Assembly (NCBI RefSeq): GCF_056746865.1 | Contig: NZ_CM163382.1 | Length of the DNA: 64,000 nucleotides | Reading direction: 5' to 3' (one strand) | Shown: positions 56,564 through 56,584 of the stretch, piece after piece | How positions within the stretch are numbered: position 1 is the first letter of the stretch | How the letters are laid out: each line of letters begins with the position of its first letter | Position numbers and translations under genes: made by a program | Notes under the pieces: generated by a model | What the model was told of the DNA's origin: nothing | The model's input: only the letters and a program-made list of their open reading frames with translations | Databases searched by the model: none

Positions 56564-56584
56564 TGAACCGCCCCGTGTTTCCTG
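56564..56584 (+). repeat. Solo IS629-type terminal inverted repeat-like 21-mer
   Basis: TGAACCGCCCCGTGTTTCCTG differs at one position from the IS629 terminus TGAACCGCCCCGGGTTTCCTG; lies at the 5' breakpoint of the truncated transferase paralog. Confidence 0.4.

Follow-up and report, generated by a model that had tools for sequence, protein, structure and literature searches.

A solo IS629-type end joins a group II intron fragment to the truncated transferase pseudogene yjgX

Introduction

Insertion sequences (ISs) can take neighboring DNA with them when they are lost. Specifically, in the account of Kusumoto et al. (2011) given in PMC9943667, IEE/transposase-dependent excision of IS629 also takes out flanking DNA, anything between a few nucleotides and over 40 kb, with the resulting ends joined at microhomology. 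For ISApl1, loss from Tn6330 (mcr-1) is attributed to template switching at microhomologies (Snesrud et al. 2018, as presented in bioRxiv 10.1101/2023.06.07.543989). That preprint also describes loss of copy-out ISs between microhomologies of 2–4 bp that can reach into the IS end (bioRxiv 10.1101/2023.06.07.543989). Here, we analyze a 64,000-nucleotide stretch of DNA (contig NZ_CM163382.1 of NCBI RefSeq assembly GCF_056746865.1; hereafter, the window), in which 21 bases resembling the tip of IS629 lie between a fragment of a group II intron and a phosphoethanolamine transferase pseudogene, the ortholog of yjgX of Escherichia coli K-12.

All that is left here of an IS629-type (IS3 family) insertion sequence is this 21-mer, which has no present function. 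Our core claim is that an IS629-type end, inserted in the intron, was later joined by a deletion to codon 105 of the transferase gene and is now inert. We assign this claim a probability of about 0.85, a figure that covers the core claim and leaves aside which deletion mechanism operated. Solo IS ends left as scars at pseudogene boundaries are a known class of object. We found no earlier description in the literature of an IS629-type end at the yjgX boundary, nor of the intron fragment beside yjgX. Published work mentions yjgX mostly as a neutral integration site. The Enterobacteriales intron survey of Leclercq and Cordaux (2012) lists for MG1655 only a different fragment, not one of the 55997–56563 type (PMC3522654).

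The solo end and its identity

The 21-mer, TGAACCGCCCCGTGTTTCCTG, occupies positions 56564–56584 on the plus strand. When up to three mismatches are allowed, the window contains four TGAACCGCCCCGTGTTTCCTG sites: the 21-mer itself and the low-coordinate ends of three complete IS629 copies. Each of those ends (at 41705, 45364, and 50679) agrees with it at 20/21 positions, the single mismatch falling at base 13, which is G in the IS and T here. Dinucleotide-preserving shuffles yield an expectation of 0.00 such matches. As befits an IS3-family terminus, the sequence opens with a terminal TG (56564–56565), which lies exactly where homology to the intron stops (56563).

The first 12 bases, TGAACCGCCCCG, recur unchanged (12/12) at either end of the IS629 copies in the window. 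Intact transferase paralogs, which read AGTTTACCGGGA at the same position, share only 2/12 of these bases, and intact introns match at 5/8 of the first eight positions and diverge beyond. Judged by these alignments, bases 1–12 are the only part of the 21-mer that is unambiguously IS derived.

The frameshift pseudoknots of the complete copies lie on the minus strand and, therefore, it is their orfB-side end that the 21-mer resembles; on the orfA side, the terminus reads TGAACCGCCCCGGAAATCCTG. The sole TGAACCGCCCC end in the window without an attached IS629 body is the one at 56564. Because the window holds no further TGAACCGCCCC or GGGGCGGTTCA end besides those of the complete copies, it is the only solo end. 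Next to it, there is neither an ALIL pseudoknot nor a nearby GGGGCGGTTCA end; transferase sequence follows from 56576. The second end of the remnant and its flank have been deleted. The exact 21-mer also occurs in two viral-collection contigs.

Three sequences meet at the joint

Within 21 bases, three unrelated sequences meet: the intron (to 56563), the IS tip (from 56564), and the transferase gene from codon 105. Table 1 lists these and the reference features in the window.

Table 1. Features at the joint and reference features elsewhere in the window
Feature	Coordinates	Strand	Basis and remarks
IS629-type terminal inverted repeat, bases 1–12 TGAACCGCCCCG	56564..56575	+	Identity to the IS629 ends in the window
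Joint/microhomology zone TGTTTCCTG	56576..56584	+	Fits IS629 bases 13–21 and transferase codons 105–107
5'-truncated phosphoethanolamine transferase pseudogene, ortholog of K-12 yjgX, without codons 1–104	56578..57762	+	PGAP and homology
Group II intron 5' fragment, domains I–IV to ~codon 8 of the reverse transcriptase open reading frame	55997..56563	+	RF02003 and homology
IS66-family tnpC remnant (exon context of the intron)	55608..55996	-	~85% identity to annotated IS66 tnpC; match ends at 55996
Intact 500-amino-acid phosphoethanolamine transferase paralog (reference)	59408..60910	+	Open reading frame; Pfam Sulfatase and EptA_B_N; PGAP WP_072644945.1
IS629 copy 1, complete, terminus reference	41705..43014	-	Target duplication ATA; ALIL pseudoknot on minus strand
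IS629 copy 2, complete	45364..46673	-	Target duplication AAG
IS629 copy 3, 1309 bp, frameshifted	50679..51987	-	No target duplication; flanks GTT / AAT

On the left, the Rfam model RF02003 (group-II-D1D4-4) matches 56022–56161 with 67.2 bits (gathering score 49; E=1.5e-12), which identifies a D1–D4 ribozyme. The 5' end of the intron, at ~55997, lies within the IS66-family tnpC remnant and antisense to tnpC; there, PGAP places a minus-strand pseudo-CDS, "transposase domain-containing protein," at 55765–55994. From 56000 on, the fragment shares 72–90% identity with plasmid-borne introns from Enterobacter, Salmonella, Azotobacter, and Burkholderia; the alignments stop at 56563. Intact relatives of the intron, among them those on the Enterobacter, Salmonella, and Azotobacter plasmids, occupy the same conserved tnpC site. 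They agree with the window up to ...AAAGCAAAG (56563) and then proceed with sequence of their own, which in Enterobacter is GGTAACGCAACGG..., the start of the reverse transcriptase (RT) open reading frame (ORF). In the window, the last bases of the fragment, ...GAAAGCAAAG, directly precede TGAACCGCCCCG. In the Azotobacter copy, an annotated ltrA starts 21 nt ahead of the break position, so the fragment is cut ~21 nt past an Azotobacter-type RT start. Neither a complete RT nor a domain V/VI match exists near the fragment. The same intron fragment is present in the K-12 island KpLE2.

Two further assignments were considered and set aside. Alignment with intact introns ruled out the 12-mer as intron or RT sequence: BLAST carried the Enterobacter alignment to 56571, eight bases into the 21-mer, with merely 5/8 matches. 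A domain V/VI match (RF00029) at 12886–12972 was rejected as the lost 3' end of the intron, as it belongs to another intron that has its own RT ORF. That second, unrelated group II intron (~11359–12972, plus strand) has an RT ORF, terminated by a stop, at 11359–12600; the intron interrupts an IS3-family orfB, the frame of which resumes at ~12973.

On the right, the full-length paralog (offset 3145) is homologous from 56576 on, and all intact E. coli paralogs recovered align only from 56576 or 56579. At the joint, the paralogs read GGG ATG ATT CCT GTT (codons 104–108) where the window reads CCCCG TG TTT CCT GTT. The isoleucine codon ATT is kept there in intact homologues down to 45% identity. 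The joint zone, TGTTTCCTG, fits both of its neighbors. Specifically, it matches IS629 bases 13–21 (GGTTTCCTG) at 8/9 positions and transferase codons 105–107 (TGATTCCTG) at 8/9 positions. The two partners match one another at 7/9 positions, including TTCCTG; by our own binomial calculation, the chance of at least 7/9 matches is ~0.0013. The TTCCTG motif is present at IS629 bases 16–21 and at paralog codons 106–107, and one copy remains at the joint, which is mosaic at positions 13 and 15. Because the match to IS and gene is symmetric, the crossover can be placed no finer than 56576–56584.

The arrangement of the parts bears on their history. The remnant reads TGAACC... on the plus strand. Its outer face is directed leftward, to the intron, and its interior is directed rightward, where the transferase lies. 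Since the outer boundary is precise and the outer face is set against the intron, the IS most likely inserted into the intron. The transferase is fused to the inside of the IS at base ~13–21 and the IS body is absent; the intact IS and the outer-face endpoint of an adjacent deletion are not found. Fusion of the gene to the IS interior excludes a simple classical adjacent deletion, in which the IS would stay whole.

A first-pass annotation, made from the letters of the window, had drawn attention to this site. It reported a 21-nucleotide stretch one base removed from the IS629 terminus with no IS629 body attached, and both statements are borne out: the alignment with the three complete copies shows the one difference (T versus G at base 13), and no other end in the window stands without a body. 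It also placed the stretch where homology to the full-length paralog begins. The 21-mer does lie at the 5' truncation point (56576/56579), but bases 13–21 overlap the gene rather than merely abut it. The idea that would have undone the proposal, that the 21-mer is ordinary coding sequence conserved in intact homologues, does not hold for bases 1–12, which agree with the paralogs at only 2/12 positions; bases 13–21 do align with codons 105–107.

The transferase remnant

The gene to the right of the scar is decayed. PGAP describes it as [quoted passage not shown] The premature stop lies at 57676–57678, and the K-12 copy of yjgX is additionally frameshifted. Pfam detects only the Sulfatase domain and no EptA_B_N, so the N-terminal domain of a functional enzyme is missing. 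In place of the FSDHG found in 8/8 aligned intact homologues, the truncated copy reads FSGLG. The D and H of the DHG motif are, we presume, metal ligands in this enzyme family. The truncated copy also reads HHYGH (~57480–57560; alignment columns 401–430) where intact homologues have HHDGH. FSGLG and HHYGH are likely losses of catalytic residues. Placement of the DHG motif on a solved structure was attempted and dropped, as the PDB match (EptC, 5zzu) spans only residues 92–240. Going by the sequence, loss of the N-terminal domain and of the DHG motif marks the yjgX copy as dead.

The remnant is 92.5% identical in nucleotide sequence, ungapped, to the intact paralog in the window, which sits downstream of tia. 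The ratio of nonsynonymous to synonymous substitution rates (dN/dS) is 0.16–0.23 for the truncated copy versus intact paralogs and 0.08–0.14 among intact paralogs. A closer intact yjgX ortholog was sought and none was accepted: intact proteins are at most 91% identical, and a 98% match proved to be the truncated ORF itself.

An intact paralog has been struck elsewhere. In E. coli Z30 (NZ_CP066844.1), an IS629-type element (2371–3681 of the extracted locus) lies in codon ~12 of the intact paralog, oriented like the solo end and with a CCC target duplication. The transferase family is therefore a real target of an IS629-type element.

Distribution and descendants of the scar

The locus is the K-12 yjgX pseudogene interval of the leuX/KpLE2 island beside tRNA-Leu. 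The neighbors run in the order nanY, nanX, IS66 remnant, truncated transferase, and then integrase. The window and K-12 KpLE2 share the identical intron/IS-end/transferase junction, nanX, nanY, the IS66 remnant, and an integrase next to tRNA-Leu. They differ in that K-12 carries extra IS4 and IS2 insertions and the frameshift, whereas in the window the integrase is a fragment that is followed by a second island with tia and the intact paralog. With strain 165, collinearity of the window is only local, and the two differ upstream.

The junction is widespread. Of 5426 complete E. coli genomes, 1535 (~28%) cover a 100-nt probe spanning the three-part junction at 98% identity or more. Carriers include K-12 derivatives, BL21(DE3), enterotoxigenic E. 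coli H10407, avian pathogenic E. coli O78, and the sequence type 131 (ST131) group. The ST131-type group has the same joint with an extra G7-to-T change in the remnant (TGAACCTCCCCG), as expected under neutral decay, and its transferase remnant is cut again at ~56734. Because the joint is identical across K-12 and ST131-type lineages, it arose once, before they separated. The scar is a single ancient event and is now inert, and we infer that it was inherited or carried with the island into ~28% of E. coli genomes. In E. coli O10:H32 NMBU-W12E19, the match takes in just the terminal ~48 nt of the intron fragment together with the IS end. This strain appears to hold a further deletion variant of the same scar.

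Several other features of the window touch on the island and its mobile elements. The integrase fragment (58079–58264, minus strand) is followed by tia and the intact transferase, to 60910, which suggests that two related islands of integrase, outer membrane protein (OMP), and transferase genes accreted in tandem here. The OMP-transferase-integrase order is also found in intact modules elsewhere. Of the complete IS629 copies, copy 3 lacks the 3-bp target duplication that copies 1 and 2 possess, which suggests that it is the product of IS–IS recombination or of an adjacent deletion. Finally, the window contains a perfect 1704-bp inverted repeat (23999–25702 and 28145–29848, 2442 bp apart), and a third copy, 95–98% identical, lies ~20 kb downstream at 48142–49824.

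How the scar may have formed

The following order of events would account for the joint. A group II intron would first have entered, by homing, an IS66-family tnpC gene of a leuX-type island. An IS629-type element would then have inserted, with its orfB-side end to the left, near codon 8 of the intron's RT ORF. Subsequently, the body of this element would have been lost together with the remainder of the intron, the DNA in between, and codons 1–104 of the neighboring phosphoethanolamine transferase gene, and IS bases ~13–21 would have been joined to the near-identical TG.TTCCTG of the gene. The mechanism could be a transposase-associated excision or deletion with microhomology joining, either via template switching in copy-out replication or via end joining. 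The truncated gene would have decayed from then on, and the scar would have been inherited or spread with the island. An event connected to transposition is preferred over random slippage because the left endpoint falls only ~15 bases inside the IS tip. We tentatively suggest, at clearly less than even odds, that IS629 was excised here in a transposase-dependent manner along with a large adjacent deletion, by template switching or by microhomology end joining of the IEE type, and that the scar is a natural fossil of this event in the chromosome.

The first-pass annotation had proposed an IS629-mediated deletion of the 5' end of the gene and later loss of the element. Of that proposal, the IS origin and the link to the truncation stand, but its geometry does not, as the gene lies on the inside of the IS, and a single step would explain the sequence as well as its two. 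The annotation also passed over the group II intron on the left, cut at about RT codon 8, the identity of the gene with yjgX, and the ancient, wide spread of the scar.

Precursors were sought on both sides of the joint. For the intron side, the query was a chimera of 200 nt of intron and 186 nt of IS629 with a coverage threshold of 80%, and the junction expected of an intact IS629 in the intron was ...GGAGAAAGCAAAG followed by TGAACCGCCCCGGGTTTCCTGGAG. For the gene side, the junction was an IS629 end abutting ...TTCCTGTTTATCATTTTCTGG. A chimera with codon 105 was matched by two genomes; in these, the IS lies ~280 bp upstream, at codon ~12, and they were rejected as intermediates.

The results of these searches, together with features of the joint itself, weigh against our account. 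The chimera of intron and intact IS629 was covered at 80% or more in 0/5426 complete E. coli genomes, the exact intron/IS629 junction was not found in 100,044 species-representative genomes or in JGI metagenomes, and no IS629 abutting codon 105 of any paralog was found. The steps are therefore read from the product. Models in which transposase cuts at the IS tips predict zero leftover IS bases. Moreover, 12–15 IS-specific bases cannot separate IS629 from its close isoforms IS1203 and IS3411, and the choice of IS end depends on one base, T15. The joint is a mosaic in which T13 agrees with the gene and T15 agrees with the IS, so a simple crossover requires one additional substitution. Among the 100,044 species-representative genomes, no IS629 with T13 turned up.

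Other histories lead to the same place. IS629 could have truncated the transferase in one step, by intramolecular transposition or by recombination of an IS629 in the intron with an IS629 in the gene, and could have been lost almost precisely in a second step. An intact IS would then have stood between the intron and codon ~105 and would have been lost between the TTCCTG at IS bases 16–21 and a TTCCTG just beyond its other end. The final sequence would be the same as that of a single deletion. Near-precise loss of a copy-out IS with some IS bases kept is documented for ISApl1/Tn6330, the element in Z30 sits inside an intact paralog, and copy 3, without its target duplication, indicates that IS-mediated rearrangement occurred nearby. 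Nonetheless, two steps require more events than one, and the predicted intermediate, whether intron/IS629 or IS629/codon 105, is in no genome searched; we regard this course as doubtful. A deletion without transposase, in which replication slipped between short repeats and by chance started just inside the IS629 end, seems improbable. Short repeats are well known as the endpoints of deletions in E. coli, and a 6-bp perfect (7/9) direct repeat is present at both inferred endpoints. Such slippage leaves unexplained, however, why the left endpoint falls within ~15 bases of the IS tip, and it would be rare here, as the repeats would have been several kilobases apart.

Two more explanations concern what the 21-mer is rather than how it arose, and both fare far worse. 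The intron contributes AGGAG (56550–56554) and the intron/IS joint creates a GTG (56563–56565), which together could drive expression of a useful, N-terminally shortened transferase. The spacing of 8 nt between them is good, the GTG is in frame with the 56455–57678 ORF, and gene callers predict a 371-amino-acid protein from it (P0002, 501 member sequences). A functional junction is nevertheless very hard to credit: no sigma-70-like promoter was found in 55800–56800, EptA_B_N is lost, DHG has become GLG, dN/dS is raised, and the gene has suffered the premature stop, the frameshift in K-12, and the large deletion in the ST131 group. Least credible of all is that the resemblance to IS629 is a coincidence and the 21-mer is ordinary transferase coding or intron sequence. 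Homology of bases 13–21 to codons 105–107 of the intact paralogs, and the eight bases by which BLAST extended the Enterobacter intron alignments, speak for it. Against it stand the 12-base tip, which follows IS629 throughout and neither the paralogs nor the introns, its start at the terminal TG and at the intron break, and the shuffles, from which no match is expected.

Implications and comparison with known systems

The scar accounts for the loss of the 5' end of the K-12 pseudogene yjgX, and it reveals that an IS629-type element once resided in the KpLE2 island lineage. Going by its published IS inventory, K-12 is not known to carry an IS629 at present. The locus preserves a nested record of mobile elements, in which IS66 received a group II intron, the intron received IS629, and a deletion followed. 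The junction can be used as a lineage marker for the island. Outside annotation and island phylogeny, little follows from it, as scar and gene are inert, and no larger question is opened. If the scar is indeed a fossil of transposase-dependent excision, a process known from laboratory work on O157 and from mcr-1 plasmids would also have shaped an ancient island present in K-12.

Compared with complete IS629 (IS3 family; isoforms IS1203 and IS3411), the remnant has the terminal sequence TGAACCGCCCCG(G)GTTTCCTG in common, and its orientation is that of the three complete copies in the window. It lacks the transposase genes, the second inverted repeat, and the target duplication, and 12–21 of ~1310 bp are left. 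With IEE-type excision, the scar would share the loss of IS629 along with adjacent DNA and the joint at microhomology. It departs from the model as set out in PMC9943667, in which cutting at the tips leaves no IS bases, in that it keeps 12–15. ISApl1/Tn6330 offers a further parallel: a copy-out IS is lost, a scar is left behind, and the microhomology joint at times lies inside the IS end. There, too, the cargo is a phosphoethanolamine transferase. The difference is one of extent. In ISApl1/Tn6330, roughly one IS length is deleted and the gene stays whole, whereas the loss in the window also took no less than 312 bp of the gene and probably several kilobases in all.
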